Assembly: GCF_000013905.1 (NCBI RefSeq) | Contig: NC_007969.1 | Location: 1,950,001-1,982,000 of the forward strand | Reading direction: 5' to 3' | DNA: 32,000 nucleotides | DNA from: Psychrobacter cryohalolentis K5 | GTDB taxonomy: Bacteria > Pseudomonadota > Gammaproteobacteria > Pseudomonadales > Moraxellaceae | Shown here: positions 12,667 to 32,000 of the stretch, one piece after another | Position numbering within the stretch: position 1 is the stretch's first letter | How the letters are laid out: each line of letters starts with the position of its first letter | Program-made: the position numbers and the translations under genes | The notes under the pieces: model-generated | Databases searched by the model: none | Told to the model about the DNA's origin: nothing | The model's input: the letters and a program-made list of their open reading frames with translations, nothing else

Positions 12667-12743
12667 GTACTGCGGGTACAAATTTTTTTGCAGCCTCTGT
12701 CTGCGTAGGCACAGCAAGAAAGAAAAATTGATACCAGCAGTAC
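12667..12743. repeat. Intergenic imperfect-palindrome repeat element, copy 2 of 3 (opposite orientation to copy 1)
   Basis: Arms gtactgcgggtac (12667-12679) and ataccagcagtac (12731-12743). The core cctctgtctgcgtaggcacagcaagaaagaaaaatt matches the reverse complement of copy 1 with a few substitutions. Confidence 0.8.
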
Positions 12744-12969
12744 ATAATATGTCGATATTACTTTTCATTGACTATATCTTTTGAATCAGCTCGCTTTTTA
12801 TATACCAAAGTCCTCTACTCATCAGCCACGCCTGATTTGCTTTGAGGTTTTTGTTATTGATAGGTAATGATATCGCCACTTTGCCACTAGCCATTATATA
12901 GTAAGCGTTTATACATCTGCTCTTAGTAAAATGACCGTTATCTATCAGCACTCGCCTATAAGGTTTATC

Positions 12970-15312: not shown

Positions 15313-15372
15313 TGGGTATCTCGGCATTAGGACTTTTATTTTATTGATAACACAGGCTAATAAGCACTCACA

Positions 15373-16386
15373 ATGGCAAACAAACCTCACTTGGCTGCAG
15401 AAGATAGCTTTAAGAAAGATGCGCCATTATCACGGCTACATGTGGCATATAAACACAGCTATGCATCAGATACATTTTTAGATGCTGCTAAGAAGGCGCC
15501 GCTGGATATTGATACCAAGTCAGGAATGTTGGCTGTTGAGGCAGCTGTAGCCATTGTAATTAATGGCATTCATTACGCTGTCTTGATGGCAAGTCCTTAT
15601 CAGCTCGAATACCTTGCCATCGGCTTTTTATATAGTGAAGGATTGATTCAGCATAGTCATGAATTACTAGATTGGGATATTACTCAATTAACAGACGATG
15701 AAAGTTATCAAGACTTTACTCCTGATTCTTTCATTCAAAATTCTTCTAATAAAGATTCTCTTAATTCTAATGTGACTGATGAGCTTATAAGCTTGGATCA
15801 GCTCTCAGAGCAGCTACAAGACTATGATATATACGTGGTCGAGCTAGTCTTAAACCAGCGCTGTCATCAGCGTATTCAAGCGCAAAAACGCCAACTGGCA
15901 GGACGCACAGGATGCGGTATGTGCGGCATAACGGGTTTAACGCAAGCACTACCCGATCTAAGTGAATATCAGATAAACAAGCTATTGCTTAGTAGAGCGA
16001 TGCCTAGTCTTGACGATTTACTGAGTATACAGGCGCAAATCAATGCAGCCCAGCATACCCATCAGCTCACAGGCGCTGTCCATGCTGCTGCAACCCTATA
16101 CGAGCAGCAGCTGTACCTATTTGAGGACGTGGGGCGCCATAACGCCCTTGATAAGCTCATAGGATGGCAGTTGCATCATAAGGTAGAGGTTGACTATGTG
16201 CTAATGACTTCGCGTTTATCGATTGAGCTGGTACAAAAATCCATTCGTAGTCGTATACCTTGGCTGATTGGTATGTCTGCACCGACCAGTACCGCGGTAC
16301 GTGTTGCCGAGCGTTATGGCTTAGGCCTAGCAGGATTTTTACGTGATAACCGCGTGACTTACTACGCAGGTTATGCCGACTCTTAA
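15373..16386 (+). CDS. fdhD: Formate dehydrogenase accessory sulfurtransferase FdhD
   Basis: The Cys loop AGRTGCGMCG and the motif EDVGRHNALDKLIG are diagnostic of FdhD. It lies directly downstream of the molybdoenzyme gene. At 337 aa it is longer than typical FdhD (see findings). Confidence 0.88.
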   Translation: MANKPHLAAEDSFKKDAPLSRLHVAYKHSYASDTFLDAAKKAPLDIDTKSGMLAVEAAVAIVINGIHYAVLMASPYQLEYLAIGFLYSEGLIQHSHELLDWDITQLTDDESYQDFTPDSFIQNSSNKDSLNSNVTDELISLDQLSEQLQDYDIYVVELVLNQRCHQRIQAQKRQLAGRTGCGMCGITGLTQALPDLSEYQINKLLLSRAMPSLDDLLSIQAQINAAQHTHQLTGAVHAAATLYEQQLYLFEDVGRHNALDKLIGWQLHHKVEVDYVLMTSRLSIELVQKSIRSRIPWLIGMSAPTSTAVRVAERYGLGLAGFLRDNRVTYYAGYADS

Positions 16387-16810
16387 AATACATACACCCT
16401 CTTCTACTCTAATGTTTGAACACATTCTTTGTCTAACCACTTCCATCAAACTTTGTTTTTTAATATCTTCCTCATCTGTCGAACAGACTTTTCAATGATC
16501 AAATTTATATATCATTATTTATAATAATTAACCATAAAATTTGTGATTGATAGCAGAATAGGTTAGTCTTAAGGCACAAACATGTTACTAATATTTAACA
16601 TTACTGTAGTTTTAATTATCAATGCTACATATGTCAGGTTAAATGCTTAGACATTTATCACCTGCCATCACGATTACGGATTATGTTTATTAGACCATAG
16701 ATAAGTAAAGCAATATTCGATCCATGGTTATATATATCTGATACACGCTATCTAAACCTAGCATAAGTCAAGCAGTTGCGACTTACCGCTCATCCGTATT
16801 ATTGCTATAG

Positions 16811-16826
16811 ATGCTTGTACAAGCAT
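16811..16826. promoter_or_regulatory. Perfect 16-bp palindrome in the long leader upstream of the symporter gene, a candidate regulator binding site
   Basis: atgcttgtacaagcat equals its own reverse complement (checked by hand). Confidence 0.3.
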
Positions 16827-17012
16827 TTATCAGCAGCCAGCTATATCACGTATGCATCATTCGTAGCGTAATGGTTCAGCCATTTACAGACGCATATCGA
16901 GCGTTGCCCCTATGATTTTTGACATATCCTTCATAATTTATGATGAAGTCATGCAGAGGCAAAAGCATCCGCTTTCAAATTTTTTTGTGACGGTTCATCT
17001 CGTTGCGTGCTA

Positions 17013-17049
17013 CCTATAATTGACCTATAGGCTGAATAGGTCGTTTTTG
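17013..17049 (+). promoter_or_regulatory. Candidate -10 box plus attenuator-like hairpin ~55-90 nt upstream of the symporter start
   Basis: TATAAT at 17015-17020, with only a weak -35. Hairpin gacctat (17022-17028) / ataggtc (17036-17042) is followed by gttttt. An alternative pairing of cctata (17013-17018) with tatagg (17026-17031) overlaps the left arm of that hairpin. Confidence 0.25.
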
Positions 17050-17102
17050 CATACCTCATAGTCTAGGAGAATACGTTTTAATCTATATTTTACTTATAAC
17101 AA

Positions 17103-18788
17103 TTGCGAGGTAGGAATTTGAAAACTGAGTCATTGTTCCAATTTTCAGCATTAACCATCATTTTGCTATTACTGGCATTTTATGGTGGTACTTATCTGCT
17201 GTCTTTATTAATAAAAAAAGATAAGGAGACGACCTCAGGTTTTATGGTCGCCGGTCACAACGTCGGTTTTGGTATGGGCGCTGCTAGTATGACCGCTACT
17301 TGGATCTGGGCAGCGTCATTTTATGCAGCTGCCACATCCGGCTATAAATATGGCGTCTCAGGACCGTTACATTATGGTTTTTGGGGTGCCTTGATGATTT
17401 TATTCATCTACCCTTTTGGGATGCGATTTCGTGAACTTGCCCCTAATGGACATACCTTGGGTGAACTTATTCACGCCCGCCACGGCTCATCAAGCCAATT
17501 AATTTTAGCCATATCTAACCTTATGGGCAGCTTAATTAGCTTGATGGTCAATTTCACCGCTGCTGGCGCATTGGTATCAGTATTATCACCTTTGTCATTC
17601 CAAACAGGGGTGATTATCGCTGGCGTCGGAGTGCTAAGCTATACCTTAACTTCTGGATTTCGTGCTTCAGTGTTCACCGATTTTGCCCAATTGGTCGCGT
17701 TAATGGCGATTGGTGTCATCATTATCCCAGCGGTACTGTTTTCCATGGGTGGTCCTTCTGCCATGGTAAGCGGACTTTCAAATCTAACCTTGCAGCAACA
17801 AGACTTCTTTTCATCTGAAGCCTTTTTTCAGCAAGGTGCGCCCTATTTTGTCGCAGTATTGGCTTATGCCATCGGCAATCAAACCATTACCCAACGTCTA
17901 TTTGCCATTGATAAAAGCAAAATTAAAGCAACCTTTATTACTGCTACTGTCGGATATGCCGGTATTGTAATTGGTCTCGGCATGATTGGACTTATGGCAT
18001 TAACCATAGGTATTGAGCCGCTCAATGGCAATATGAATAATTTGATTCCGCAAATGGTCAGCACGTATCTACATCCGGTATTCATCGCCTTATTCTTTAT
18101 CTTGGTTATTGGTGCCCTGTCCTCAACGGCTGATTCAGATTTATCAGCACTATCTACCATTATGATGGCTGACATCTATGGCAAGAATATTGCCAAAAAA
18201 GGCGGCGTAAACCCAAAAACCATGATGCTTGTCGGTCGGGGAACCATGATTGTCGCTACGGCTGCCGGATTGATTTTTGCCAGCTTTAAGCTTGATATTC
18301 TCGTGATGTTAGTCTTTGTCGGTGCGTTATGGGGTGCGATTGTATTTCCAGTGATTGCCAGTGTGTTCTGGAATCGCGTGACAAACACTGCCTTTACCTC
18401 AGCCGTCATCGTCGGATTATTGTTATTCTGTATCGCTCGCTTTGAGCTCATACCTATCATTGGTGTTACGGCGCTATTTTTTGAAGTATTGGCAAGCGTT
18501 GGTGCTGCTGTGGTGATTGGCCTCATGGTATTTGGCTTTTTAGGTCGAAAAATGGCTGTGGCAGCTGCTGCCCTTACACTGATACTGATGCTGATATTTG
18601 CCACTGGTTTCTTACGTCAATATATGGTGCTGCTTGCATCACTGACCGCTTATGGTGCCAGTACAATCGTCTGCGTCATTATCAGCCTTATGAGCAACGA
18701 GCATTTTGACTTTGATCTTATTAAACAGCGCGTTGGCGACTATGACAATAAACCCAACATACCGCCGACCACCAACGTTCAAAACTAG
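17103..18788 (+). CDS. Sodium:solute symporter (SSS) family transporter, substrate unknown
   Basis: 561 aa and polytopic, with SSS-like Gly/Ala-rich TM segments. No ATG or GTG lies upstream of the first TM segment, so the start must be TTG. The TTG at 17118 with GAGG at 17107-17110 is more plausible than the TTG at 17103. Confidence 0.8.
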   Translation: MRGRNLKTESLFQFSALTIILLLLAFYGGTYLLSLLIKKDKETTSGFMVAGHNVGFGMGAASMTATWIWAASFYAAATSGYKYGVSGPLHYGFWGALMILFIYPFGMRFRELAPNGHTLGELIHARHGSSSQLILAISNLMGSLISLMVNFTAAGALVSVLSPLSFQTGVIIAGVGVLSYTLTSGFRASVFTDFAQLVALMAIGVIIIPAVLFSMGGPSAMVSGLSNLTLQQQDFFSSEAFFQQGAPYFVAVLAYAIGNQTITQRLFAIDKSKIKATFITATVGYAGIVIGLGMIGLMALTIGIEPLNGNMNNLIPQMVSTYLHPVFIALFFILVIGALSSTADSDLSALSTIMMADIYGKNIAKKGGVNPKTMMLVGRGTMIVATAAGLIFASFKLDILVMLVFVGALWGAIVFPVIASVFWNRVTNTAFTSAVIVGLLLFCIARFELIPIIGVTALFFEVLASVGAAVVIGLMVFGFLGRKMAVAAAALTLILMLIFATGFLRQYMVLLASLTAYGASTIVCVIISLMSNEHFDFDLIKQRVGDYDNKPNIPPTTNVQN

Positions 18789-18876
18789 ATTTATATCTTA
18801 TCGACGTTTTGATGAATTTTTTAATGGCTTGATGTATTCATCATTCATTTTTAATACCTAAAATAAAGGAGTTAAT

Positions 18877-19011
18877 ATGGAAACCACGTTTTTTTATGGG
18901 CTTTATATCTTAATCTGGCCAGCAATCACGCTGGGTGTACTGATACTTATTTGTACTGCGACTTATAGAGATGTAAAAAAGGCCGTAAATAACAATAAAA
19001 GTATCGTTTAG
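18877..19011 (+). CDS. Candidate small membrane protein (44 aa) downstream of the symporter, not in the supplied ORF track
   Basis: SD AAGGAG at 18867-18872 lies 4 nt before the ATG at 18877. The translation is METTFFYGLYILIWPAITLGVLILICTATYRDVKKAVNNNKSIV, with one clear TM helix and a basic tail. I checked the frame and the TAG stop at 19009-19011 by hand. Confidence 0.45.
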   Translation: METTFFYGLYILIWPAITLGVLILICTATYRDVKKAVNNNKSIV

Positions 19012-19097
19012 CGGCTTAATTGAGGCTAGGATTTATCGTGATATGACGCTAAATACGCCTAACCTGATAAATAATCGGTCTTTATATCAAAAAGGGC

Positions 19098-19125
19098 TTG
19101 TAATTTAAATTATATTTGCTAATAT
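19098..19125 (+). promoter_or_regulatory. Candidate sigma70 promoter for tRNA-Cys
   Basis: TTGTAA (19098-19103), a 16-nt spacer, then TAATAT (19120-19125). It ends ~15 nt upstream of the mature tRNA 5' end. Confidence 0.4.
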
Positions 19126-19139
19126 AGGCGTCCTTGATT

Positions 19140-19213
19140 GGCTGGGTGGCAGAGTGGTCATGCAGCGGACTGCAACTCCGTTAACGCCGGTTCGATTCCG
19201 ACCTCAGCCTCCA
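19140..19213 (+). tRNA. tRNA-Cys (anticodon GCA)
   Basis: 74 nt, folded by hand. Acceptor GGCTGGG/CTCAGCC has one G-T pair. The anticodon stem is GCGGA/TCCGT and the loop CTGCAAC carries GCA. The T loop is TTCGATT and CCA is encoded. The T stem has one C-A mismatch. The sequence is close to E. coli tRNA-Cys. Confidence 0.9.
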
Positions 19214-19257
19214 ATTATTTAGGTTAAAAATTTATTAGGATTTATATTAATTTTAGC

Positions 19258-19285
19258 TTGCTTTATTAATGTAAATGCTTATAAT
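19258..19285 (+). promoter_or_regulatory. Candidate sigma70 promoter for tRNA-Leu
   Basis: TTGCTT (19258-19263), a 16-nt spacer, then TATAAT (19280-19285). Confidence 0.4.
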
Positions 19286-19338
19286 AGCGACCACTATCTA
19301 ACAAGTAGAAAGCTTACTTATTAGATAATACAAGTTTT

Positions 19339-19425
19339 GCCCGGGTGGTGAAATTGGTAGACACAAGGGATTTAAAATCCCTCGCTAGTAATAGCGTGCC
19401 GGTTCAAGTCCGGCTCCGGGTACCA
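19339..19425 (+). tRNA. tRNA-Leu (anticodon TAA), class II with a long variable arm
   Basis: 87 nt. Acceptor GCCCGGG/TCCGGGT. The anticodon arm AGGGA-TTTAAAA-TCCCT carries TAA. The variable arm is CGCTAGTAATAGCG, the T arm is CCGGTTCAAGTCCGG, and CCA is encoded. It is nearly identical in layout to E. coli leuZ-type tRNA. Confidence 0.95.
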
Positions 19426-19460
19426 TTACATAGTCCTATACTAACTTATAGAACAGCTAA

Positions 19461-19487
19461 AGCCCCTGATATCAGGGGCTTTGTTGT
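19461..19487 (+). terminator. Hairpin terminator downstream of tRNA-Leu
   Basis: Perfect 20-nt palindrome agcccctgat/atcaggggct (19461-19480), followed by the T-rich ttgttgt. Confidence 0.55.
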
Positions 19488-19589
19488 ATCTGGCGTTCTA
19501 TACTGTCCTATGAATCTATCCTAATCCATGCACTTTGAGTATACTGTCAAGTATACCGAGTTTTGAGTCTACTCATGGAGACGTAGGAT

Positions 19590-20936
19590 ATGGAAAGAAA
19601 AGCGATCAGTTCAGACCGAAGCATTAGCAGTCATAAACCTGAAGATAAGAAGTACTTCGTTGCTGTCAAAAATCATCCCAAACTCTTCTTAATGGTGCGT
19701 CCTACTGAAACCAAATCATGGATGTATCGCTATTACCCACCTTCAAACCCCAAACAAAGTATTATCTCCATCGGTATATATCCAAGTATCTCATATGCTC
19801 GTGCCTGTGAAGTTTGGCGTGAGTATGAAGATCTTTTAAGCAAAGGCATTGATCCTAAAATCCACCGTGAAGATATAAAGAAAAGTTTTATTAGTAAAAC
19901 TAAAAACTCTTTTAATCACTTTGCTTGGGAATACTTCGATACTCTTGAACAGAGTCAAAAAGGTAATACGCTCATTCGTAAGAAGGGTCGCTTGGAGCTT
20001 ATATGCTCCTACATAGGTAATGAGCCAATTAGTGAAATTGGCTCTCCTAGAATGCTTGAAGTGCTTTTAGATATTCAAGCCAAGTCTTTAAATAAAGACG
20101 ACAAGCCTACTGACAAAGCTGAACGCTGCGCAGGCATCGCTAGTGATGTATTTGTTTATGCTAATGCTCGTGGGTTTTGTAGTAGCAACCCTGCGGCGCT
20201 TATTAAAAGCCAATTAGCTAAATCTAGTTACGGTCATCGTCCAGCTGTTACCAAGCCGAAAGACTTAGCCAAGTTACTACGAGCTATTGAAACGATAGAG
20301 GGTGATCCAAACACCATTAACTCCCTTAGGCTATTAGCGCTTCTCTTTGTTCGCAATGGTGATTTAAGACGTATGTGCTGGATTGATCTAGACCTAGAGG
20401 CTGGCAGGTGGCGGTTAAAGCCATTGAAAGGACAAGGCAAGGTAAATATGGTCAAGGACATGGTTGTTCCCCTACCTCGTCAAGCCGTAGCTATATTGCG
20501 TGAGCAACAAAAGATTAATGGGCATACCAAGTATGTCTTTTTTAGCCAGACGGCAAAAAAGCATCAGATCATATCTGACGCTACTGCTAATAAGCGTTTA
20601 AAGGATTTAGGCTATAAAGACATACATTGTGCTCATGGCTTTAGAGCGACAGCGAAGACCATCCTACAAGAGCAGTTAAAGTATCCGCTTGTTCTTGTTG
20701 AGATGGCTTTAGGTCATACTACTAAAGACCCTAATGGAACTGCTTACGGTCGGTTTGAATACATCGACGATCGTAGCGACATGATGCAGAAATGGGCAGA
20801 CTATCTAGATGCTTTACGAGAAGGTAGAGATACGGCAAAGTTTAAAGCAGATGCAGAAGATAAAGCTAATCCTACCACCCAGCTGCAAGCATTGATCGCC
20901 CAGCTAGGAAAGGATAAGGTTTTAGAGCTATTGTAG
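19590..20936 (+). CDS. Tyrosine recombinase / site-specific integrase, P4-like, with an N-terminal arm-type (DUF4102-like) DNA-binding domain
   Basis: 448 aa. The N-terminal ...FLMVRPTETKSWMYRYY...IGIYPSISYARACEVWREYEDLLSKGIDP matches the P4-integrase arm domain. The catalytic signature has VRNGDL (Arg), HGFRATAKT (HxxR), LGH and AYGRFEY (Tyr). Confidence 0.9.
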   Translation: MERKAISSDRSISSHKPEDKKYFVAVKNHPKLFLMVRPTETKSWMYRYYPPSNPKQSIISIGIYPSISYARACEVWREYEDLLSKGIDPKIHREDIKKSFISKTKNSFNHFAWEYFDTLEQSQKGNTLIRKKGRLELICSYIGNEPISEIGSPRMLEVLLDIQAKSLNKDDKPTDKAERCAGIASDVFVYANARGFCSSNPAALIKSQLAKSSYGHRPAVTKPKDLAKLLRAIETIEGDPNTINSLRLLALLFVRNGDLRRMCWIDLDLEAGRWRLKPLKGQGKVNMVKDMVVPLPRQAVAILREQQKINGHTKYVFFSQTAKKHQIISDATANKRLKDLGYKDIHCAHGFRATAKTILQEQLKYPLVLVEMALGHTTKDPNGTAYGRFEYIDDRSDMMQKWADYLDALREGRDTAKFKADAEDKANPTTQLQALIAQLGKDKVLELL

Positions 20937-21113
20937 AAGAATAAATAGCTCATATTAAACTTTCTTTGAAGCACTCACTTTTAAAAGTATTGAATTATAT
21001 ATCATATACGAAAAGGCTATTTTCTATTTAGAACCACCAGTGACGAATATTTAAGCGATGAATTATGTCAGATCATTATTACGATATAGTCTAGTTACTT
21101 TAAAAACGATACA

Positions 21114-21184
21114 GTACTGCTAGAATGAATTTTTTGAAGCCTCTGGAGCGCACAGCAAACGAGGAAAATTCATACCAGTAGTAC
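21114..21184. repeat. Intergenic imperfect-palindrome repeat element, copy 3 of 3 (same orientation as copy 2), inside the island
   Basis: Arm gtactgctagaatgaatttt (21114-21133) pairs with aaaattcataccagtagtac (21165-21184) with 3 mismatches in 20. It shares GCCTCTG, CACAGCAA, GAAAATT and ATACCAGTAGTAC with copy 2, and its core is ~6 nt shorter. Confidence 0.7.
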
Positions 21185-21227
21185 GTCGCTACTAACGTAT
21201 CGATTTTATTTGGTACAGACTATACTA

Positions 21228-23327
21228 TTAATAAACACTTTCGCCCATCTGCTTTTCCAAGCCCTGTCTAATAAGCCCCATTACATAGGGTAAATCAGAA
21301 ATATCGCTCAGCCCAATCTCAGCATCACCATTACCCCAGCGACCAAGACTGCTAACATCTCTAGCCATTTCTTTAGGATCATTTAGCTCATGAAAACGTA
21401 GGTTAATAGATAATCTCAATTTGCTTTTTAGTGGCACTACATCAACAAAATTAGTTTCTGCTTTGAATGCGACATATAGCTTTAAGATATCTTCAGTAAC
21501 GCTAGGATCAAGAGCCATTACTTCTTTACGAAGCTGCTGAAAGAGATCATACATTGGCGCATCTTCAGCAAGATGAACATGGTCTGCCAGCGTATAGCCT
21601 TCATGCTGTAAAGGTATATCAATATAAGCCTGTAATATACTCTCTGGTAAATGAGGTGCCACCCATACTTCAATAGCGCGATTGGCAAGTTTTCTAGCTC
21701 TCGCGCTAATTGCGCTTTCATTCCATACGCTACAGCTTCTTAGATCTTCGTTAAGTACAAGTGGACTATTTTTAAAACCACCTGTCATATCACGCTTTTC
21801 AATAAATGGGCGGTCACTGTACTCAGAGTTATAACCAGTTAGTGTTAGGTTGCCAAGTGTATGCAAATAGGTTGCATGCACTTGTTGCCAGTCAGCGCCA
21901 AGCTCTTCTTGCCACTGCTTCGAAAGCCTTTCATTCTGAGGCATGATATGCTCAATAGTATATTCATCTACTAAAACATGCTCTTTGCGCTCAAAATTCT
22001 CGAAACGACGTAACCAGTAAGTGCGGCTACGGAAGTTATATAAGTCACGAATAACGAGTTCACGCTTAAATTCATCGTCATTTGGGAATCTTTTATAAGA
22101 ACGTAATCCGATCAAGTGAGCTTTGATACTCTCTAAATAACGATCTTTATCAAGCGCTTTATGAAAAGTTGCAAAGGTTTTATTTAATGAATTTGTAGGG
22201 ATTGCACATACCGCACGACGGAAAACATACGATTCAATCAGGCGTACCGCATTATAGAAGTCATCTTTGCTAAGCTGTTCTAGACTATAGTCATGATAAA
22301 GTTCAAGTAAGAAAGGATAAGCAACATCAACTTTGAGCTCACGCAAATCTTTAAATGCCACTGCTAGTTGTTTATCAGTTTCTTTGTCTAGTGCCATTGC
22401 ACAGAAGTATTTAGCGAAAGAGTGAATGTCGGCAACCAGTTGATCTACATTTGATCCTTTTGCTTCAAGTCTTTGAGCATGCTGTTTAAAGGCCTCATAT
22501 ACACCATCAAGCCTAGGAATATCACCTGTTTTTACCGTCAAATAGTGACGCATAAAGCTATCGAAGTAATCACCATAGCTCTCCTGACCAAACTCGACCT
22601 CCATAGGCCGCCAATGGTCATAATAGAGATCAGCTTGATGATCTGGCTCCAACCCCATCAATACAAAGTTGCGAATTAAATCAGCTTGGCTCAGTGCTTT
22701 GCCAGTAGAGTTCATGCTCTCAAAAATCAACTGTGGATTATCTTGATCTCGACTCAAAGCAATATCAACAATAATTACCTTTGCTAGACCACGGCAGAGC
22801 TGCTCTAAATTGCCATTTAGTTTTGCTATCTGTGTATCAAAGAAATCGAAGTTCTCTTTAATTCGTAAAGAGAACTTCTGTGGCAGTGACTTTTGTGTCA
22901 CTAGGGATAAGAAACTATCTTTGTCAGTCTGCGTTAAAATCAGTTTATATCCACGCTCACCGTCTTCTAATGGATTTAGCAGATAGTAATTGCGCAGTTT
23001 TTTAGCAGAGAATCCCTCAACAGGTTCAGTATCGCCAAGGTGACGAGATAAAGCTTCTAAAAGAAGCATAGCTGTTGTTAATCTTTGCTGACCATCAATT
23101 ACCAGTAAAGGTGACTGGCTAGAAACCTGATATAAGCCCTTCTCGATATAAACTACAGAGCCAATAAAATGAGCCCCAACAGCATCATTATTGCCTGCGC
23201 GCATGATATCATCCCACAATTGACGGCACTGCTGTTCAGTCCACGAGTAGGTGCGCTGATATATAGGAATAATAAATTGTGGTGATTTCTTTAAAAAATC
23301 GAGTAGTTTGGCTTCTGTTGCTTTCAT
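21228..23327 (-). CDS. DUF262/DUF1524 two-domain protein (GmrSD / SspE / BrxU-like putative NTPase-HNH nuclease) with an extra C-terminal domain
   Basis: 699 aa. The N-terminal FIIPIYQRTYSW and VIDGQQRLTT are DUF262 (ParB-like) signatures. The motif YTIEHIMPQ...LHTLGNLTLTGYN is the DUF1524 His-Me/HNH-like signature. About 130 further residues (...LYVAFKAETNFVDVVPLKSKLRLSINL...) form an additional C-terminal module. It starts 83 nt downstream of the pglZ stop, with GAGGA upstream of the ATG. Confidence 0.85.
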   Translation of the reverse strand: MKATEAKLLDFLKKSPQFIIPIYQRTYSWTEQQCRQLWDDIMRAGNNDAVGAHFIGSVVYIEKGLYQVSSQSPLLVIDGQQRLTTAMLLLEALSRHLGDTEPVEGFSAKKLRNYYLLNPLEDGERGYKLILTQTDKDSFLSLVTQKSLPQKFSLRIKENFDFFDTQIAKLNGNLEQLCRGLAKVIIVDIALSRDQDNPQLIFESMNSTGKALSQADLIRNFVLMGLEPDHQADLYYDHWRPMEVEFGQESYGDYFDSFMRHYLTVKTGDIPRLDGVYEAFKQHAQRLEAKGSNVDQLVADIHSFAKYFCAMALDKETDKQLAVAFKDLRELKVDVAYPFLLELYHDYSLEQLSKDDFYNAVRLIESYVFRRAVCAIPTNSLNKTFATFHKALDKDRYLESIKAHLIGLRSYKRFPNDDEFKRELVIRDLYNFRSRTYWLRRFENFERKEHVLVDEYTIEHIMPQNERLSKQWQEELGADWQQVHATYLHTLGNLTLTGYNSEYSDRPFIEKRDMTGGFKNSPLVLNEDLRSCSVWNESAISARARKLANRAIEVWVAPHLPESILQAYIDIPLQHEGYTLADHVHLAEDAPMYDLFQQLRKEVMALDPSVTEDILKLYVAFKAETNFVDVVPLKSKLRLSINLRFHELNDPKEMARDVSSLGRWGNGDAEIGLSDISDLPYVMGLIRQGLEKQMGESVY

Positions 23328-23410
23328 AATAGTGATCCTATCCTCAAATCCAACTTATCCATTGTTTTTATAGTTGTCTACTTAGCTATTAAATTATTTC
23401 AGTGATTATT

Positions 23411-25909
23411 TTAAAAATCAAAATCACTACTAAATGAACGTCTTACTGTATATTTAAGCGATTTGTATTCTTTGTAGTGAGAAGTTCCGCCTACTTTTTC
23501 TTCTAGCTTTAAAATAACCTCTTGACCGTTAAGCTCATCGATCCTACGTGTGAAAATCAAGTTTACCTGCTGCTCACGCGCGCGTGGGTTTTCTGAGCGT
23601 AAATCGAATGTCATCTCATAGCTATCTGAGATCAACTCACCTGATTCAGTGTAGACACCTACTCTCAGTACGCGAGGCTGATTTTTTTCAGTGACAGGGG
23701 TACTTTGGTATAAGCTAACGGTAAGCTCCTCTGTAGTAATTAAAGAGTTCGATCCGCGTAAAATATCCACTTCAACTGCTGTAGTATCACTTTGCCTTTT
23801 TTTATTAATGCTAACGACGGGCACGACAACTTCCTGTAATGATGCTCCGCCATGTACAAATCGACTTCCCGAGCCACTAAGTCTTAAGCGATTAATCGAC
23901 TTAGGTATCTGCACTTCAACATCACCAATTAAACCGAGCGCTTCAGAGCTAAACTTATGCAAGCTTGGTGAATCAACTAGCCCCTTACCCAGTATAAATC
24001 GACGATCTCGATATAGTATTTCTTTACCTTTGGGCTCTGCGCTCGAAAAGTCGCTCTCTTCTATGGCACGGTTTTGGTATATAAAGCCATGATCAGCCGT
24101 TATTAAAATGTTATTAGCATTAGCTGCTGCTAATTTCTTAATGATTTTCATCAAATCGCTAAGCGTCTTTTCTGCCGCTTCAAACGCTTGCCCTTCAGAG
24201 TGCATTTTATCGCCAGTATGATCAATCCGATTATGATAAATATAAATGACGTCATTAGCTTTTAACAGCTCTCGACTACCCTCTCTATTGAGCTGCATAA
24301 AATTATCGGCAGTGATCGCATCTCCTCGATCTTGCAACGCAGCTTTAAGTATCTTACTTCTGTTAGATGTCCCCTGAGAGCTTTGTCCATTCACAAGCAC
24401 TGTGCCTGAAGTGTTGTCTGCTATGGATAATGTATCGTTCGGTAGGAGCGCTGCCATACCAAGCTGAGTATAGCTAGGTAGCATAGACAACATAGGCGCT
24501 ATATCAGCACTGTAGCGATCTTCTTGACGTATTAAGCTGACTAGTTCATCCGCTATCTCATAGCGCATGGCATCTGAGATAATGACGTATATCTTGTTGT
24601 TGTTATCTAGAAACGGTTTCACCCAATGACCAAAAAAGTTATCCTGTCTGAGAATTGGCGCAGCATTCCATTGGCTTTCAGATTCTACGAATTCCTGAAA
24701 GCGATTACCTAACTTAAGCAAATAGTTATTAGAGTATATATTCTCTATTTTATCGTTGAGGTGGTTGAGAAGTGATACTTCTCCAGACTCAAGTTTGTGG
24801 TAGATAAACTTACGATAAAGTTGATCAAGCTTGTACCAAGACTGGGTATAACGCTCTACCCCTTGTACAAGGCTATCCATATCGATTTTGACTTGATTAA
24901 AAGTAGCTATAAACTGCGCTGCATTATCAAGGGCTTGATAGGTATGCTCAAACTCAGCGTACCAGTGACTCTGACGACGCTGGCGAATCCAAATAGCCAT
25001 TTGTTCAGCGGTAAAGTCACTTTGTAAGACTGCATTAGCTAGCGCGCTAATTATCTTGTTATCAATTAAGCGGAAGTAGTCTATATCGATGAGCTGTTTA
25101 AAATCTCTACTACTAAGATCATCTCTAATATCAAGATCATCAGAAAATTTATCGGATAACATCTCAAAGCTGTCTTTATATTGTCTACTGTCTTTCCAAC
25201 GTTTCAGAAATACCAAAGCATCATTGGACAGCTTTACCTGACCATCAGTTGCCATTGCATAGCTAGATTTAAAGAGTTCAATGGCAAAATCATGAATACT
25301 AGGCTCAGTAGAGTTATAGCCATAGTAGCGATTCATTTGCTCCCAGAAAAAGCCATCAAGAGCAGATCGACTAATCAGGCTCATTTTTTCACCTTTATCA
25401 TTGGCCAAGTCCTGCAACAGACTCTCAACGACTGTGTCCATTTTAGGCTCGCTCTTAGCACAAACAGCCAGCATCTTTAGCTGAACCATACCTGAGCTAT
25501 CACTGGGCTCTATAAGCTTACCTAGAGCATCTTTACGGCTTTTAGCGCGAAAGAACTCTGCATGATCTTTTAAGACCTCTGCAAACTCAATACCTAATGA
25601 TAGCTCCGAGAGCCAGATAGCAACTTGGTCAGTACGAAATTCCCCGTGAGCCAGCTGTACATCCAATAGCCAATTATCAAATAGCGCAGGCTGAGCACCT
25701 GCACGATAAAGCAGAAACTTTTGATTAGGCTGCTCGCGTATTATTTTATATTTAACACTGAACTCATTGTTATCTAGGACGATTTTTTCAATATCTTCTA
25801 GTACTAGACTGTCAAAATCATCACGCAGCTCATGCTTGGCATCGTACCAAAAAACAATACGATGTTTTTTAAAGAGCTGCTGTAATGCGTTGATGATGCG
25901 ATCATTCAT
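23411..25909 (-). CDS. pglZ: BREX type 1 alkaline-phosphatase-superfamily protein PglZ
   Basis: 832 aa. The N-terminus ...RIVFWYDAKHELRDDF...NNEFSVKYKIIREQPNQKFLLYRAG...NWLLDVQLAHGEFRTDQ is characteristic of BREX-1 PglZ. PglZ-domain motifs VIISDAMRYE and ITADHGF are present. The start overlaps the pglX stop (TAATG). Confidence 0.93.
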   Translation of the reverse strand: MNDRIINALQQLFKKHRIVFWYDAKHELRDDFDSLVLEDIEKIVLDNNEFSVKYKIIREQPNQKFLLYRAGAQPALFDNWLLDVQLAHGEFRTDQVAIWLSELSLGIEFAEVLKDHAEFFRAKSRKDALGKLIEPSDSSGMVQLKMLAVCAKSEPKMDTVVESLLQDLANDKGEKMSLISRSALDGFFWEQMNRYYGYNSTEPSIHDFAIELFKSSYAMATDGQVKLSNDALVFLKRWKDSRQYKDSFEMLSDKFSDDLDIRDDLSSRDFKQLIDIDYFRLIDNKIISALANAVLQSDFTAEQMAIWIRQRRQSHWYAEFEHTYQALDNAAQFIATFNQVKIDMDSLVQGVERYTQSWYKLDQLYRKFIYHKLESGEVSLLNHLNDKIENIYSNNYLLKLGNRFQEFVESESQWNAAPILRQDNFFGHWVKPFLDNNNKIYVIISDAMRYEIADELVSLIRQEDRYSADIAPMLSMLPSYTQLGMAALLPNDTLSIADNTSGTVLVNGQSSQGTSNRSKILKAALQDRGDAITADNFMQLNREGSRELLKANDVIYIYHNRIDHTGDKMHSEGQAFEAAEKTLSDLMKIIKKLAAANANNILITADHGFIYQNRAIEESDFSSAEPKGKEILYRDRRFILGKGLVDSPSLHKFSSEALGLIGDVEVQIPKSINRLRLSGSGSRFVHGGASLQEVVVPVVSINKKRQSDTTAVEVDILRGSNSLITTEELTVSLYQSTPVTEKNQPRVLRVGVYTESGELISDSYEMTFDLRSENPRAREQQVNLIFTRRIDELNGQEVILKLEEKVGGTSHYKEYKSLKYTVRRSFSSDFDF

Positions 25910-28900
25910 TAGCTAAGCCCCGTTACTTTCTTTAATGCTTTACCAAATTTAGGATAGTTTACTTTTACGCCATCATCTAAGTCTATGTCGATCTGTTTGG
26001 TCGCTAATGGATAGAGTACATCGCGCTCATACTCTTCCATCTCAGTAATCATTTTGGTAGTAGTTTCTAGCTTCTTTATTGCCTTTGTTTTTTCACTTTG
26101 GCTTTGACTACTACTAATTTTGATCGTATCAAGCTGGTCTTTATAAGCATTAAGCTTAGTACGGAACTCACGTAGATAGTCATTGAGCACGATACTTACC
26201 GTATCGGGCTGATAGCGATGCATGTAGATAAGCGCACTGAAGTTACCACTGGTAAATAGCCAATATATTGGACGTTTCTTATAACGTTTTACGTGATCGT
26301 CATAGAAGTCTTTTAAGAAATAGTCACGAATATCACGTGGCTTGTCATTCTTGCCAAGCGACTGTTCAATGAATTGCATATTGCTCTCATACTGCTCTTC
26401 GCCAAAAGCTACCTTAATGAATTTACGGAAGCGCTCAACAATATCGTCGCTGAACCAACCATCGTCTAAGATAGGAATAACGTTGTTTTTATCAGGCATG
26501 AAGCTTGGATCAGGTATCTGTTCAAAGTACTGCTCTATTTTGTCACCTTGATTGGCAAGTATCAGCCCAGGCTTGTCTAAGCTATAGCGACCAAACATAC
26601 AGCCGACTGCATAAGAGATCAGCTCACGCATGGTATCGGCTAGCAATAACGCCTCCAGCTCATCGTCTGTCTTGACGCCACCATAACGATAGTATGGGTT
26701 ACTGGTCAAAGTCATTTCTTTTAGCGGAACATCTGGCGTAAGCTCATCTTGTAAGCCATAAGCGTCGATAAAAATGCGGTTATTCTCTTCTTCTAAGTGT
26801 TGCATGTCATTGGTCATTTGTTGCCAATGAGTGCGTAGTCCTTTATAAGTGTCTGCTAAATTTGACTTGCGATATTTTTCTTCGAGCAGTGTTAATGTAG
26901 TAAAGTCCCATGAGGTTTCGTAAGAATCCCAATCAAACTTGCTATATTCAACTAATTTTTTCACTAACTCATTTACTCTTTTACAATTCTCTTCATCCAA
27001 CTGAATCCAAGGTAAGTTATTTATATTAACTACCTGAAAATTAAGAGTAGGATTAGTTGCTTTAAGAAATTCAAAACAAATTTTAGAACATAAATAACCT
27101 GCTGCTAAATAATAGTTATCACCTTCTGGAAAAATGCTTGATCCACCTACATCGAATATAGCCCCACCTAACGAACATCGAACACCAAAACTATTGGAGC
27201 TAATGAATGACCATGTTAATGATTTTTTAAAAAAATCTGACTCATTAGTGATTTTCCATCCTAGATTATCCCAGCTAAGCTGCGGATACTTGATAAGTGT
27301 TTCTTCTTTAATATCATAACCATCATTTTCCCAAAAAACTAAAAACTCATTGTTACCATACCAGCGACGAAACTCACCACCTTTGTTATAAGGAAACCAG
27401 CTTTTTGGTAGTTGAATATCTTGGTCAGAATTAAGATCAGAAAAGCTACATTTGATTAAAGATGTTTCATACCACAGTCGTAACCATTTGGCATTATCGC
27501 CAGTACGCATGCCTAGTTTTGCAGGAAAAACATCCTTAATTAATTCACCATTATCATAGCAGTCTATATATGGCTTACTGATCCAGTAAGTTATAGGTCT
27601 TCCTGGTATCTTCTTAAAATCGTTGGCTGAAGATTGATATAGGTTATTAAATTTCTTTTCCTCGCTAATTTCAAGTATCATCCTGTTTTTTTGAAATTCA
27701 GAATTACCATCAACTAAACGTAAGTAATTTCCCTTATAGTCAAGGTCACTCAATTTTTTCATAATAAAAGCTGTTGTTTGAACTACCTCTCCGCCAATAC
27801 TATCAAATGCTCTCGAGCCTAAATGAGCCATAGAAGTTATCGTAACTTGATTAAGAAGCTGTTCTCTCAACTCTTTAAATGAAGATAAGAACATCCAACT
27901 ATGCATAGTTATCATAGCTACTAACCCTTGATTACAAACTAAATCAAGACTTCGCTCAATGAACATAGCAAATAAATCAGACTTGCTATTTGGAAACTCT
28001 TTCTTTGCCCATGCCTTTAATCGATTATTCATGCCACTGCCACCCATATAAGGCGGGTTAGCAACAACGACATGATACTGCGGACTTAAATAATCTGCCT
28101 GCTTTAACAGCTTAAGCACTTTTTGATGCGTATGACCTAAAAATAACTGCCCTGAGACATCAGTCGCTTCCAACTGCTCTAAAATTTCAGCAACATTTTT
28201 TAGCTTTGGTCTGATCAAAGAACCAAAATTATCGACCTCATCAAACTGGCGCAGCGTTTCCTCTAAGTCAGCGGTAAATATATCACGGCCGATAAAGTCC
28301 ATATACTCATCTAACTCATCGTCATCAAAACTAATGGGCTCAAGCACACAGATATTTGGACGCACATCTGTATTGAAGAATCGACGATGACGATCTCTTG
28401 CCTTCATAGTCAATGCAAAAGCAGCCAACTCACCAGCTCGTTCATCAATCTCAATACCGTACAAGTTATGCGTTAAGATAAGCGAAGGTATGTCTGCTGC
28501 ACCATAGCCTTGCTCTTCATAGATCGCGTATAGCAGATCAAACGCATAAGTCAGCATGTGACCTGAGCCACATGCTGGATCGCAAATTTTAAGATCTTCT
28601 GGACGCGCTACCTTGAGATAATCAGAGTCATCATTATCATCAGCAGGCTTTATATAGTATTCCATGCTGTCTGCTAACTTGGACTCTGGATGATTAAGCA
28701 ACCATAATCGCCCAAGCGAGTTCTCTACCAAATAACGTACGATCCAATGTGGCGTGAATAGCTGAGTAGCCGCTGGAATATTTTCTGGTGTCACTTTCTC
28801 ATTTTTCTTTAATCTTGCAAATACATCATCTTTTTTATCTGATATGTAAAACTGATACAACCAACCAATGACTTCAACGTCTTTACAAGCGCTTGCTGGC

Positions 28901-29457
28901 ATGGCTTCACGCATATCAGTTAATACTGAGCTACTGGACAGCAAGTCATCAGGCATTAGCAACTCTGTATAGTCGTCGATACGCTGGAATAAGAATGGCA
29001 TGGACTCATGCCATTGATTACAGTATGCGACCAGTAGCAGACGATAAACTTCTGCTTCAGGATTTTGACTGGGCGCTCTGCCATTTAACAGATTGAGGAT
29101 TTGCTCACGGACTGGTTCTGATACCACTCGCTCATCAATGTCTCCAGCCTTTGCCAGCGCCAGTACTTCAGGTTGAGTATCATCGGCAGCAGCAGAGACC
29201 ACGAGGCTGCGGTTATAGCGATTCATATCCATGAAGCGAAGGGCACAGAAACGGTTGAACCAGATGTATGCGATACGCTCGACGATTTCCTGTTCGGACT
29301 GCTGCTTGATTAGCTCCTCTAGCTTTTTAACAGCGATAGGATTCTCACGTCTGGCTAAACTTTCTTCTGCGCGTACAAATTTGAGCTTAGTAGCGACTTG
29401 CTCAATCAAAGTGACACGTGCCTGTTGAGCAAATTTTTTGAGTTTGGTCGTTTCCAT
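25909..29457 (-). CDS. pglX: BREX type 1 N6-adenine DNA methyltransferase PglX
   Basis: 1182 aa. The N-terminus METTKLKKFAQQARVTLIEQV...IAYIWFNRFCALRFMDMN is typical of PglX. It has the SAM motif DPACGSGHML and the catalytic motif VVANPPYMG. The start overlaps the brxC stop (TAATG). Confidence 0.95.
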   Translation of the reverse strand: METTKLKKFAQQARVTLIEQVATKLKFVRAEESLARRENPIAVKKLEELIKQQSEQEIVERIAYIWFNRFCALRFMDMNRYNRSLVVSAAADDTQPEVLALAKAGDIDERVVSEPVREQILNLLNGRAPSQNPEAEVYRLLLVAYCNQWHESMPFLFQRIDDYTELLMPDDLLSSSSVLTDMREAMPASACKDVEVIGWLYQFYISDKKDDVFARLKKNEKVTPENIPAATQLFTPHWIVRYLVENSLGRLWLLNHPESKLADSMEYYIKPADDNDDSDYLKVARPEDLKICDPACGSGHMLTYAFDLLYAIYEEQGYGAADIPSLILTHNLYGIEIDERAGELAAFALTMKARDRHRRFFNTDVRPNICVLEPISFDDDELDEYMDFIGRDIFTADLEETLRQFDEVDNFGSLIRPKLKNVAEILEQLEATDVSGQLFLGHTHQKVLKLLKQADYLSPQYHVVVANPPYMGGSGMNNRLKAWAKKEFPNSKSDLFAMFIERSLDLVCNQGLVAMITMHSWMFLSSFKELREQLLNQVTITSMAHLGSRAFDSIGGEVVQTTAFIMKKLSDLDYKGNYLRLVDGNSEFQKNRMILEISEEKKFNNLYQSSANDFKKIPGRPITYWISKPYIDCYDNGELIKDVFPAKLGMRTGDNAKWLRLWYETSLIKCSFSDLNSDQDIQLPKSWFPYNKGGEFRRWYGNNEFLVFWENDGYDIKEETLIKYPQLSWDNLGWKITNESDFFKKSLTWSFISSNSFGVRCSLGGAIFDVGGSSIFPEGDNYYLAAGYLCSKICFEFLKATNPTLNFQVVNINNLPWIQLDEENCKRVNELVKKLVEYSKFDWDSYETSWDFTTLTLLEEKYRKSNLADTYKGLRTHWQQMTNDMQHLEEENNRIFIDAYGLQDELTPDVPLKEMTLTSNPYYRYGGVKTDDELEALLLADTMRELISYAVGCMFGRYSLDKPGLILANQGDKIEQYFEQIPDPSFMPDKNNVIPILDDGWFSDDIVERFRKFIKVAFGEEQYESNMQFIEQSLGKNDKPRDIRDYFLKDFYDDHVKRYKKRPIYWLFTSGNFSALIYMHRYQPDTVSIVLNDYLREFRTKLNAYKDQLDTIKISSSQSQSEKTKAIKKLETTTKMITEMEEYERDVLYPLATKQIDIDLDDGVKVNYPKFGKALKKVTGLS

Positions 29458-32000
29458 TAGATATAGATCCTTTTACCTTTACGTATTTCGCTGAGCAGTG
29501 CCTCACTCATCGCCTCTAGATAACGCTCTACATCGGTCTCGTTCTCTATCCAAGCTCGATCGTAATCCACCCTGATTTTGTTTGAGTTGATATACTCATT
29601 TTTAGGCTCACTCACCTGTTTAGGCTCAGATAGCGCAGACACTTGTGATTGGTCTTTATCACTCTTATCACCGTTGTTAGTACTTACCTTTGCAGGCGTT
29701 GGTGGTGGCTTGGGCGTTGCCATTACTACCATTTTCTGCAATAAAGTTGCATAGCCCTTGTCTTCAAAGTATCGCAATCTATCATTAATAACGGCAATCA
29801 ACTTCTCTTCATTCACCTTATCAATCAGTTGTGTATAAGGAGCGTCAAGTTCTGCCTGTCTGATATCTGGAAGTTTTTTATACTCATCCATCTCTTGCAT
29901 ACGCGACTGCATTTGTTTAAGCGCTTCAATCGATTGGCTACGAGCTTCCTGTAGGGCATCATTGACCTTGTCTTTCAAGCTGCCTAATAGCACTTTGACC
30001 TGTTGGATCTTACTGCCTTTATATATAGAGGTATCGTTTAGACTGGCCTCAAGCACCCTCACCTGTTCTCTTTCGATATAATCAAAGTTCGCTGATTGAT
30101 CTTTCAAGAAATTTTGAGTGTTATCATATATTTCTCTTTGAGAACCATTCATAAAATTGTAAATAGGATCTATCAGCTGCTCTTTGATCTTCAGAAGCTC
30201 ATCTTCAATATCTTCGTTAAGGTCAGTTAAAAACCATGCGTAGGATGATTTTGAAAGCTTTTTGATTTGCTGAATAGCGGGATCTAATGCACTCAAGAAA
30301 GGATATCGTGCGGACTGTGCATACCAACCCTCCAAATCTTGTAACATCTCTTTGAATGCATCAATCGTTTCATTGCCTAGTGCTTTTGCCTCATTATTAC
30401 TAGCAGGCTTAGCAAAAAAGTCTTCATAAAACTCTTTGAGATGACGAACTTGTGACGAAGAAAATTCAACTTGGGGCTCTAATACCAGGTTGCTTTGACG
30501 TTGACTATTTACTAAAGCGCGCGCAAGCTCACTGTCCTCTAATATGTTGCCATCCATTCGAACTTCGACTTTGCCATTTACACATAGCTTTGCAAGGGTG
30601 CTGAGCACAGCTGCGTATGACCATCCGTATGGTTTTTTTTCAAACTGTTCTAACAACCCTTTTACTGTCGTCCGTATAGCCGCACTAGCATTTCTTTGGA
30701 TAAAAGATAATACATCACGCTCTGGCTCGGCTAATGTAGATATATCGGCACCCAACATGTCTTGTTGGGTAGAGTCGAGAATCTTGGCAACATCAGCCTC
30801 TGTGTAAGATGCATCGCGTAGCATACGTAGATGAGGGTATGATCTAGAAACAAGCTCATTGAAGCCTTTCTCAATACGTAATTGAGCGTCTTCTGAGCTA
30901 ACATTTAGCTCCGTACCTGCTACGAGTAGTTTTGCCTGACTCATGAGACTTTTTATTCGCTGTAGCAACTCGGCCTGACGCTTAGTATTTTGTTGTCCTT
31001 TCTCGCCTAAGATACGTTTTACTGTCTCTTGCTGAGCAATAGAATAATTTTGTCTGACATATTTCTCTGTACGTTTGTACATCGTTATATCACTCATCAA
31101 GCGAGAATCGGCTGGCAAGATTACAAATAATTCATCGCTAGAAAAGTTAGATTTATTAGACATCATCTCTTCATTTTCAGCATGCTCATAAAATGGGCTG
31201 ATGACATTGATACCTATCTCGTATTCACGACCATATAACTTATCATCAAGCTTTCGTGAAAAAGAATAGTCTTGTCCTTGGCTACCTGATGCGCCGCTAC
31301 TGTAACGAATCTTGCGACTTTTAATCACTTGATCAAAGATTATGCTTTCAAGCTCACTAGCCACATCAGCTGCTTCTACTTCCGTATTTTTTATCTCTTC
31401 TTCAATATCTTTTTCTTCGTCCGTCAAATACTCGTACATATCTCCTGTACGTTGTACGTAGGTCTCGTCTTCTAGTAGATTAAGCGCCTCTTCAACACGC
31501 TGACGGAGTATAGCTACATCCTCACCAAAGCTACTCAGCATTAAGACACATATATTACGAATTGTTGATTTGAATCCATCAACATATTTCACTAAAAACA
31601 AGGCTTTTAATACCTGCACTGCAAATTTGTTATCTAAATGGGTTTCTGCATTGATGACAGCTCGTTGGATGTTGGACTTCAATGCGGTACGAATACCTTC
31701 AAACATTAAATCAAAAGTTGCTAGCTGACCTATGTCATGATCACCTACTTTTATTGCTACTTGTTGAAACACACCCAACATCGAACGCTCACCAACTGAG
31801 CTATGCTTACCCTCAAAAGCATTATGTAAGGATAGATCAGCAATTGCAGACTGAAACAAGCTGAACTGGTAAGGGATGAATGGATAGCTGTTTATAAAGT
31901 GTTCTTTGTCTTTAAAATTTCTATATGTCTGTGATCCATCAGCAAAATCAAACAGCGTTTTGAAATTGTTTGACTGATTATCATATATGCCTGATAACAA
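29457..32000 (-). CDS. brxC: BREX P-loop ATPase BrxC (PglY family), 3' portion only; the N-terminus lies beyond the window
   Basis: An 847-codon open frame runs off the right edge, so the leading M in the track is an edge artefact and the Walker motifs are not visible. It sits directly upstream of pglX and is translationally coupled to it. The motif SYPFIPYQFSLFQ, its size and its coiled/acidic C-terminal part fit BrxC as I remember it. Confidence 0.8.
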   Translation of the reverse strand: MLSGIYDNQSNNFKTLFDFADGSQTYRNFKDKEHFINSYPFIPYQFSLFQSAIADLSLHNAFEGKHSSVGERSMLGVFQQVAIKVGDHDIGQLATFDLMFEGIRTALKSNIQRAVINAETHLDNKFAVQVLKALFLVKYVDGFKSTIRNICVLMLSSFGEDVAILRQRVEEALNLLEDETYVQRTGDMYEYLTDEEKDIEEEIKNTEVEAADVASELESIIFDQVIKSRKIRYSSGASGSQGQDYSFSRKLDDKLYGREYEIGINVISPFYEHAENEEMMSNKSNFSSDELFVILPADSRLMSDITMYKRTEKYVRQNYSIAQQETVKRILGEKGQQNTKRQAELLQRIKSLMSQAKLLVAGTELNVSSEDAQLRIEKGFNELVSRSYPHLRMLRDASYTEADVAKILDSTQQDMLGADISTLAEPERDVLSFIQRNASAAIRTTVKGLLEQFEKKPYGWSYAAVLSTLAKLCVNGKVEVRMDGNILEDSELARALVNSQRQSNLVLEPQVEFSSSQVRHLKEFYEDFFAKPASNNEAKALGNETIDAFKEMLQDLEGWYAQSARYPFLSALDPAIQQIKKLSKSSYAWFLTDLNEDIEDELLKIKEQLIDPIYNFMNGSQREIYDNTQNFLKDQSANFDYIEREQVRVLEASLNDTSIYKGSKIQQVKVLLGSLKDKVNDALQEARSQSIEALKQMQSRMQEMDEYKKLPDIRQAELDAPYTQLIDKVNEEKLIAVINDRLRYFEDKGYATLLQKMVVMATPKPPPTPAKVSTNNGDKSDKDQSQVSALSEPKQVSEPKNEYINSNKIRVDYDRAWIENETDVERYLEAMSEALLSEIRKGKRIYI

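Follow-up and report, generated by a model that had tools for sequence, protein, structure and literature searches.

The known systems closest to the locus considered here include type 1 BREX, which was reportedly defined by Goldfarb et al. in 2015 and has been studied in E. coli HS, Acinetobacter NEB394, Salmonella D23580 and LT2, and E. fergusonii pEFER. The locus lies in a stretch of 32,000 nucleotides from Psychrobacter cryohalolentis K5 (contig NC_007969.1, positions 1,950,001 to 1,982,000; this whole stretch is called the window below), where the type 1 BREX genes brxC, pglX and pglZ are followed by a gene for a GmrSD-family nuclease in the position at which brxL would be expected. An earlier note on this DNA had offered three accounts of the arrangement, namely a methylation-only remnant, a system completed by a brxL gene elsewhere, and a variant in which the GmrSD-like protein replaces BrxL, and had held them to be inseparable from the window alone; comparative data now largely separate them. 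The note took BrxL to be a requirement for restriction, a premise that is now outdated: Salmonella D23580 defends itself without BrxL, and deletion of brxL raised defence up to 10,000-fold (PMC11341690), while a 2026 survey found BrxL in 74-76% of canonical or type 1 BREX loci, which leaves about a quarter without it, and regarded it as not indispensable (PMC12839542). Apart from the figures of this survey, a search for literature on natural brxL loss found little. The robust complex of BREX has been described as BrxB-BrxC-PglX-PglZ, with PglZ being a metal-dependent nuclease (PMC12205998).

GmrSD nucleases are named in the 2026 survey as a prominent auxiliary effector beside BREX (PMC12839542), and Pgl/BREX with GmrSD has been called "one common pairing" in defence islands (Picton et al., PMC8565348). 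In one such pair, that of BrxU and BREX, each partner works without the other and adds to its protection (PMC8565348). The related HEC-06 is a validated standalone defence protein that needs its DGQQR and E-H motifs, and the same work describes GmrSD-like genes embedded in type I restriction-modification (R-M) operons (Payne et al., bioRxiv 10.1101/2024.01.29.577857). From these embedded genes and from TgvAB of V. cholerae VPI-2 (PMC11411939), the gene in the window differs in having BREX as its partner instead.

Against this background, we consider it likely that the locus is a five-gene BREX lacking BrxL, next to a standalone GmrSD nuclease that was acquired independently and sits in a cargo slot; the GmrSD module is most likely cargo in its own right rather than a replacement for BrxL. 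The features on which this reading draws are as follows.

29457-32000, minus strand: brxC, C-terminal 847 codons (two-thirds of the gene), running past the window edge; NCBIfam BREX_BrxC NF033441
25909-29457, minus strand: pglX, BREX-1 N6-adenine methyltransferase, 1182 aa; NF033452
26818-27960, minus strand: hypervariable central region of pglX (residues ~500-880), putative target-recognition region; from sister-island comparison
23411-25909, minus strand: pglZ, BREX-1 type A, 832 aa; TIGR02687
23328-23410, minus strand: spacer of 83 nt with a promoter-like TTGATT-17-AATAAT with TG (23421-23393) and a GAGGA ribosome-binding site; from consensus matches
21228-23327, minus strand: gene for the GmrSD-family protein, 699 aa; Pfam and PADLOC
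22662-23300, minus strand: DUF262/ParB-like NTPase domain of that protein (GmrSD_N, PF03235; 3e-35)
21681-22085, minus strand: its DUF1524 HNH nuclease domain (GmrSD_C, PF07510; 5e-24)
21258-21560, minus strand: its C-terminal DUF5655 (1e-12), absent from the earlier note

An open reading frame (ORF) map of the 32-kb window, together with family profiles, places the three BREX genes and the 699-aa gene at the coordinates that the earlier note had given them, all on the minus strand. The BrxC part in the window matches NF033441 at 2e-215 over profile positions 351-1172, so that the N-terminus falls outside the window; it comprises the Pfam BrxC 4th, wHTH and helical domains. PglX scores 1498 bits against a cutoff of 500 for NF033452 and has NPPY at residue 467, while PglZ scores 973 bits against a cutoff of 270 for TIGR02687 and 1113 bits with the PADLOC PglZ model. 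The stop/start TAATG overlaps of pglX with both brxC (29457) and pglZ (25909) are present, as is the 83-nt gap before the GmrSD gene, all as first described. Rightward extension of the sequence, which the earlier note had proposed, brought brxA and brxB into view upstream of a full-length brxC (1208-1221 aa, Walker A GFFGSGKS), giving brxA and brxB, then brxC-pglX-pglZ-GmrSD-integrase; no BrxR was seen in the window or in this extended source locus. Exact protein matches assign the window to the Psychrobacter assembly GCA_904845985.1, and its PglZ is 100% identical to a protein that NCBI lists under P. cryohalolentis. The likeness to type 1 BREX lies in the A-B-C-X-Z gene order, the translational coupling, and PglZ type A and PglX models far above cutoff, and the pEFER BREX proteins are 29-36% identical over their full length to those of the window. 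The difference is that the clade of the window is without brxL, a condition that by analogy would correspond functionally to the Salmonella brxL-deletion state, which restricts (PMC11341690).

The absence of BrxL between pglZ and the island end, likewise noticed earlier, was confirmed by tblastn: three BrxL queries gave no match at E<=10 in the window, the extended source locus or the sister islands, and none at E<=1 in eight related loci. As a positive control, the BREX proteins of Psychrobacter and E. fergusonii find each other in such searches at ~29% identity. Positions 1-19000 of the window hold ordinary chromosomal genes, and BrxL was not found among them. Apparent PglZ-BrxL fusions in some sister loci were rejected, because the PglZ frame has a stop codon before the BrxL start; they are an artefact of a tblastn alignment that was extended across this stop codon.

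The history of the missing gene emerges from the relatives of the operon. A metagenome scan by PglZ returned 80 loci of 60-98% identity. Those at or below 68% that have enough downstream sequence carry a canonical BrxL directly after pglZ in nearly all cases. The four closest loci (82-98%) show brxA-B-C-pglX-pglZ and then an orthologue of the integrase (83-92% identical), with neither BrxL nor GmrSD, and three further Psychrobacter loci are built likewise: the integrase comes after brxA-B-C-pglX-pglZ, either directly or with cargo in between, and BrxL is missing. In the protein database there are ~32 PglZ clusters at or above 82%, all the named ones from Psychrobacter, and then a gap to 71% and 68%. 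Hence, a Psychrobacter clade of five-gene BREX lacks brxL throughout the sampled loci. When the island of the window is aligned with its sister islands, the pglZ stop codon is the exact point at which DNA homology breaks off, and the integrase stop codon the point at which it sets in again; the interval between them holds different genes in different islands (L-numbers designate individual loci).

20960-23410 of the window, no strand assigned: variable cargo slot from the pglZ stop codon to the integrase stop codon, delimited by homology breakpoints
Window, L001, L004 and L006 (PglZ 97.7-100%): GmrSD/DUF5655
L091 12544-13581 (PglZ 98%): one PDC-M09A-like gene, 345 aa
L183 12740-14784 (PglZ 96%): IS transposase and a PDC-M09A-like gene, 310 aa
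L185 12790-15893 (PglZ 93%): PDC-M09A-like gene, PDC-M40B-like gene and a 92-aa ORF
L092 12719-16275, and likewise L187 (PglZ 85%): Bunzi (BnzA and BnzB), E ~1e-183 to 1e-208
L093 and L094 (PglZ 82%): empty

Judged by these contents, which in the sister islands are known or candidate defence genes (Bunzi, PDC-M09A, PDC-M40B), the pglZ-integrase slot is a defence-cargo hot spot. Since the slots of the relatives vary, all are without BrxL, and homology breaks at the slot edges, the loss of BrxL is older than the arrival of GmrSD. The BREX module of L185 and L187 is bracketed on both sides, as its brxA lies right next to an AbiLi-like ATPase gene.

The distribution of the GmrSD/DUF5655 protein points in the same direction. 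Surveyed at one genome per species, it occurs in at least 571 species, spanning Gammaproteobacteria, Cyanobacteria, Actinomycetota, Planctomycetota and the archaeon Methanothrix. Contexts were taken from the best 80 of these loci, all of at least 65% amino-acid identity, with up to 10 kb on each side. PglZ, BrxC, BrxA, BrxB and BrxL were found in none of the 80, and the recurrence of a pglZ-then-DUF262/DUF1524 order, for which the earlier note had suggested looking, thus fails to appear. Instead, an Hsd gene lies within 6 kb in 51 of the 80, a same-strand Hsd gene within 150 nt in 37, and Hsd genes flank the gene on both sides in 19; the usual home of the family is a type I R-M operon. Even the same island scaffold, which begins with Holliday-endonuclease-like, CoiA-like and 355-aa genes and ends with the integrase, can carry the gene behind another system: copies whose protein is 94% identical to that of the window stand downstream of a complete type III Mod and Res pair, with a DUF6615 gene next. 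A 79% copy in P. faecalis comes after genes matching HsdM, HsdS and HsdR and a YgjP-like peptidase gene, and before the same integrase and tRNA-Leu, while a 92% copy adjoins another type I system, with Bunzi next. These type I and type III partners have nucleases of their own, which leaves no missing function for GmrSD to replace. As the homology of the gene to its other copies is limited to the ORF, and the slot has sharp breakpoints, GmrSD behaves as a single-ORF cassette. The protein is also 100% identical across BREX islands in which BrxC differs by up to 9% and the PglX recognition regions differ, which argues against the co-evolution with BREX that the earlier note had raised. Nor is GmrSD inherited together with the BREX core in place of BrxL, for six distinct BrxL-less sister islands are without it.

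The five-gene BREX itself shows the marks of a maintained system. All five genes are intact, and against L091-L094, the four most divergent sister islands, their dN/dS values (ratios of nonsynonymous to synonymous divergence) are 0.04-0.16, with synonymous divergence of 1-2 in three of the four; PglX is the exception at 0.12-0.26. The dN/dS of pglZ against the sister islands is 0.05-0.09. Within PglX, the central region is 20-40% identical among six sister islands, as against 85-100% in the flanks and in the other BREX genes, and GC content falls to 0.334 at 27001-28000, coinciding with the variable region. Each sampled island has its own version of this region, and PglX lengths run from 1154 to 1182 aa. 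The mosaic fits a swapping of target-recognition regions between islands. Such an exchange would matter only if specificity matters, and given intact genes, purifying selection and a swapped recognition region, the module is unlikely to be the decaying remnant that the earlier note had considered.

On this basis we can sketch how the two modules might act, although their activities, targets and independent action are inferred. PglX would methylate a host motif, and the BrxB-BrxC-PglX-PglZ complex would restrict unmethylated phage DNA with PglZ as the nuclease, by analogy with Salmonella. Restriction without BrxL would match the report for the Salmonella system, and the five-gene BREX is on this analogy probably active in restriction. 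The GmrSD enzyme, by analogy with GmrSD, BrxU and HEC-06, most likely couples NTP hydrolysis to cleavage of phage DNA. Its targets would, on the same analogy, probably be DNA with modified bases, and modified-base-dependent cleavage would allow it to cover phages whose DNA modifications evade methylation-based systems.

In the GmrSD/DUF5655 protein a helical linker joins the GmrSD_N and GmrSD_C domains, and the protein as a whole gives full-length matches to PADLOC 'Orf5' (PDLC02693, 7e-206) and HEC-06 (1e-65). The motifs QRTYSW (24-29), DGQQR (78-82), EHIMP (459-463) and H489/N493/N500 are invariant in 20 homologs across phyla. Its dN/dS against relatives is 0.04-0.07, and across phyla amino-acid identity stays at 66-78% where synonymous sites are saturated, which makes the family strikingly, even unusually, conserved for a defence gene. 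With HEC-06/'Orf5' it shares, besides the full-length match and DGQQR, the E-H HNH motif (EHICP in HEC-06) and the habit of lying within or beside other defence systems; it differs in an extra C-terminal DUF5655 of ~130 aa, to which these profiles do not extend, and the HEC-06 that was tested came from an Hma system. BrxU of pEFER (PDB 7P9K) is likewise a DUF262+DUF1524 GmrSD enzyme in the operon direction of a type 1 BREX, but it lies between brxC and pglX with brxL in the locus, has an RLFDS motif and lacks DUF5655. The two do not appear orthologous: the window gene follows pglZ, and pEFER BrxU has no tblastn match at E<=1e-5 in the Psychrobacter loci. The origin of the PADLOC name 'Orf5' could not be traced, and it is absent from the DndI paper. 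By profile search the nearest solved structures are DndI (9JFL, 1.6e-14) and SspE (6JIV, 2.6e-07), which share the DGQQR NTPase and HNH architecture but are ~16% identical, belong with phosphorothioation dnd/ssp partners and have no DUF5655; neither the window nor L171, the extended source locus, contains ssp or dnd phosphorothioation genes. A full-length AlphaFold model built from 20 close homologs is poor (mean pLDDT 61), and its fold matches to DndI and SspE were used because the sequence-profile search agrees with them.

Several points weigh against an independently acquired nuclease beside a restricting BREX. Restriction without BrxL is here extrapolated from a single experimental system, that of Salmonella, and E. 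coli and Acinetobacter BREX, as cited in PMC11341690, do need BrxL for restriction. The GmrSD gene is co-oriented with pglZ at a distance of 83 nt with no terminator-like element between them, so that co-transcription and some functional coupling are possible; the 83-nt spacer contains no terminator-like hairpin, and in a scan of 19000-23700 promoter and terminator sites were no more numerous than in shuffled sequence. The closest solved relatives, DndI and SspE, depend on a partner modification system and are not classical type IV enzymes. Lastly, the search that found no brxL covered ~37 kb, made up of the window and 5 kb beyond brxA on its upstream side, and a brxL acting in trans could lie farther away.

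If the five-gene BREX only methylated, as an epigenetic or self-marking system, restriction at this end of the island would be left to GmrSD alone. According to work cited in PMC11341690, deletion of brxL abolishes restriction and not methylation in E. coli HS and Acinetobacter; moreover, brxB, brxC, pglX and pglZ are all needed for methylation, so that a methylation-only role would likewise keep them under purifying selection. However, islands with 98% identity elsewhere have exchanged the PglX recognition region repeatedly, as an arms race over restriction specificity would have them do, the module is always found in an island with defence cargo, Salmonella can do without BrxL, where its deletion can raise defence, and about a quarter of type 1 loci manage without it, PglZ itself being a nuclease; we accordingly regard a purely methylating BREX as unlikely. 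It is very unlikely that the system is completed in trans by a brxL gene at another place in the Psychrobacter genome. In the ~60 loci of the sister clade brxL stands directly after pglZ in nearly all, the searches described above saw no BrxL in the window and 5 kb upstream at E<=10 or in the eight related loci at E<=1, the module in L185 and L187 is closed in by the AbiLi-like ATPase gene and the cargo slot, and the loss of brxL is common to a clade with synonymous divergence of 1-2.

There remains the idea, the one of its three that the earlier note said would be new biology, that GmrSD/DUF5655 fills the role of BrxL; it would then be a DNA-cutting BREX effector that senses host modification and nicks phage DNA in the manner of SspE and DndI. 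The position of the gene on the strand of pglZ, 83 nt downstream with nothing like a terminator between, speaks for it, as do the nearest solved structures, which on both sequence and fold searches are those of proteins that sense the modification made by a partner module, the suggestion that auxiliary nucleases may respond to PglZ nicks (PMC12839542), and the company that the family keeps with adenine-methylating systems of the BREX, type I and type III kinds. Yet BrxL-less sister islands under the same purifying selection are without GmrSD, a 94% identical protein follows complete type III and type I systems with their own nucleases, none of the 80 species loci is BREX-linked, the protein is constant (100%) between islands whose BrxC is 9% different and whose PglX recognition regions are not the same, and the cassette boundaries are ORF boundaries. 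A substitution of BrxL by GmrSD, analogous to the BrxHI/BrxHII helicases of other BREX types, is on these grounds very improbable, and the comparison does not support the claim of replacement. A broader form of it is similarly a long shot: GmrSD/DUF5655 would not be a classical stand-alone type IV enzyme but a plug-in effector, portable between systems and responding to a signal from whichever adenine-methylating R-M-like module precedes it. The signal could be the N6-methyladenine status of the host or PglZ nicks, much as phosphorothioate is for SspE and DndI. If it held, the plug-in GmrSD would supply the DNA-degrading step in a BrxL-less BREX, and the strong conservation of the protein, across phyla and into archaea, would stem from the need to engage a signal that is universal.

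That BrxL is not an obligatory effector of type 1 BREX, and that GmrSD nucleases ride beside methylation systems, are both already in the literature. If a BrxL-less BREX with independent GmrSD cargo is the right description, the locus would be a natural example of both points, and its added value would lie in a resolved evolutionary series, consisting of a five-gene BREX under purifying selection, a swapped PglX region and a cargo slot; it would then also be a convenient natural system for studying how BREX restricts without BrxL. The GmrSD/DUF5655 subfamily, uncharacterised and very widespread, could repay biochemical study.

The surroundings of the modules place them within a mobile element. 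The relevant features of the window are these.

19140-19213: tRNA-Cys; ARAGORN
19339-19425, plus strand: tRNA-Leu(taa), probable integration site; ARAGORN
19590-20936, plus strand: tyrosine integrase of the island, 448 aa; Pfam Arm-DNA-bind_3, Phage_int_M and Phage_integrase
21114-21133/21165-21184, no strand assigned: imperfect 20-nt inverted repeat 3' of the GmrSD stop codon, 85% complementary with a 31-nt loop

Orthologues of the integrase (83-92% identity) terminate the sister islands, and the tRNA-integrase arrangement is identical in L004, L011, L092 and L093. The tRNA-Leu(taa) gene is probably the integration site, and the locus likely represents the integrase-proximal end of a Psychrobacter defence island integrated at tRNA-Leu, with two independent defence modules. 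The "repeat element" that the earlier note had placed after GmrSD does exist, but it amounts to just the imperfect 20-nt inverted repeat; this may possibly form a hairpin at the end of the transcript, though the terminator scan did not call it. In L092 and L187, the islands with Bunzi, two ORFs (~233-256 aa and 219-227 aa; 16352-17733) take the place of a single integrase gene, which suggests a frameshifted, immobilised island.

Some further observations concern the relatives of the BREX module. The only PglZ of intermediate identity (71%), in L189, is followed by a 143-aa ORF (3184-3615) that is not BrxL and has no PADLOC match, on a contig of just 4 kb. Many of the BrxL-containing loci of the sister clade (L124-L129, L135-L141, L148 and L149) have a BrxU-like gene between pglX and pglZ, at ~8136-9956 in most and ~34% identical to pEFER BrxU, so that insertions of GmrSD type occur in BREX at more than one position.

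Among the domains that accompany the GmrSD cassette, the DUF6615 gene (~296-298 aa) that follows GmrSD/DUF5655 in type I and type III islands (L011 12271-13167, L174 12277-13167) is absent from the window and has no PADLOC match. A literature search on DUF5655 returned essentially nothing. The domain is itself mobile: 1453 representative proteins match it at E<=0.001, in which it occurs standalone (~105-190 aa), in tandem as two to three copies, or as the C-terminal part of larger proteins (300-870 aa). It is modelled well (pLDDT 91), and a fold search gave weak matches to YjbR (2fki, E=0.03) and, at TM ~0.5, to the DUF1801 structures 2oc6 and 3h9x. YjbR has reportedly been assigned a "double-wing" fold that binds DNA, and DNA binding by DUF5655 may at most be guessed at.

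Upstream of brxA, the extended source locus carries genes of the island backbone.

L171 1-4743: island backbone genes upstream of brxA

They include a Sel1-repeat protein (232 aa) and a membrane/zinc-ribbon-like protein of 359 aa without a Pfam match, and, in divergent orientation, a CoiA_N/DUF7830 gene (298 aa), a Holliday-endonuclease-like gene (178 aa) and an AAA_15/21 ATPase, whose orthologue in L185 matches PADLOC AbiLi at 1e-74. In the type III R-M version of the island, the 355-aa gene shares 67% identity with this 359-aa gene.

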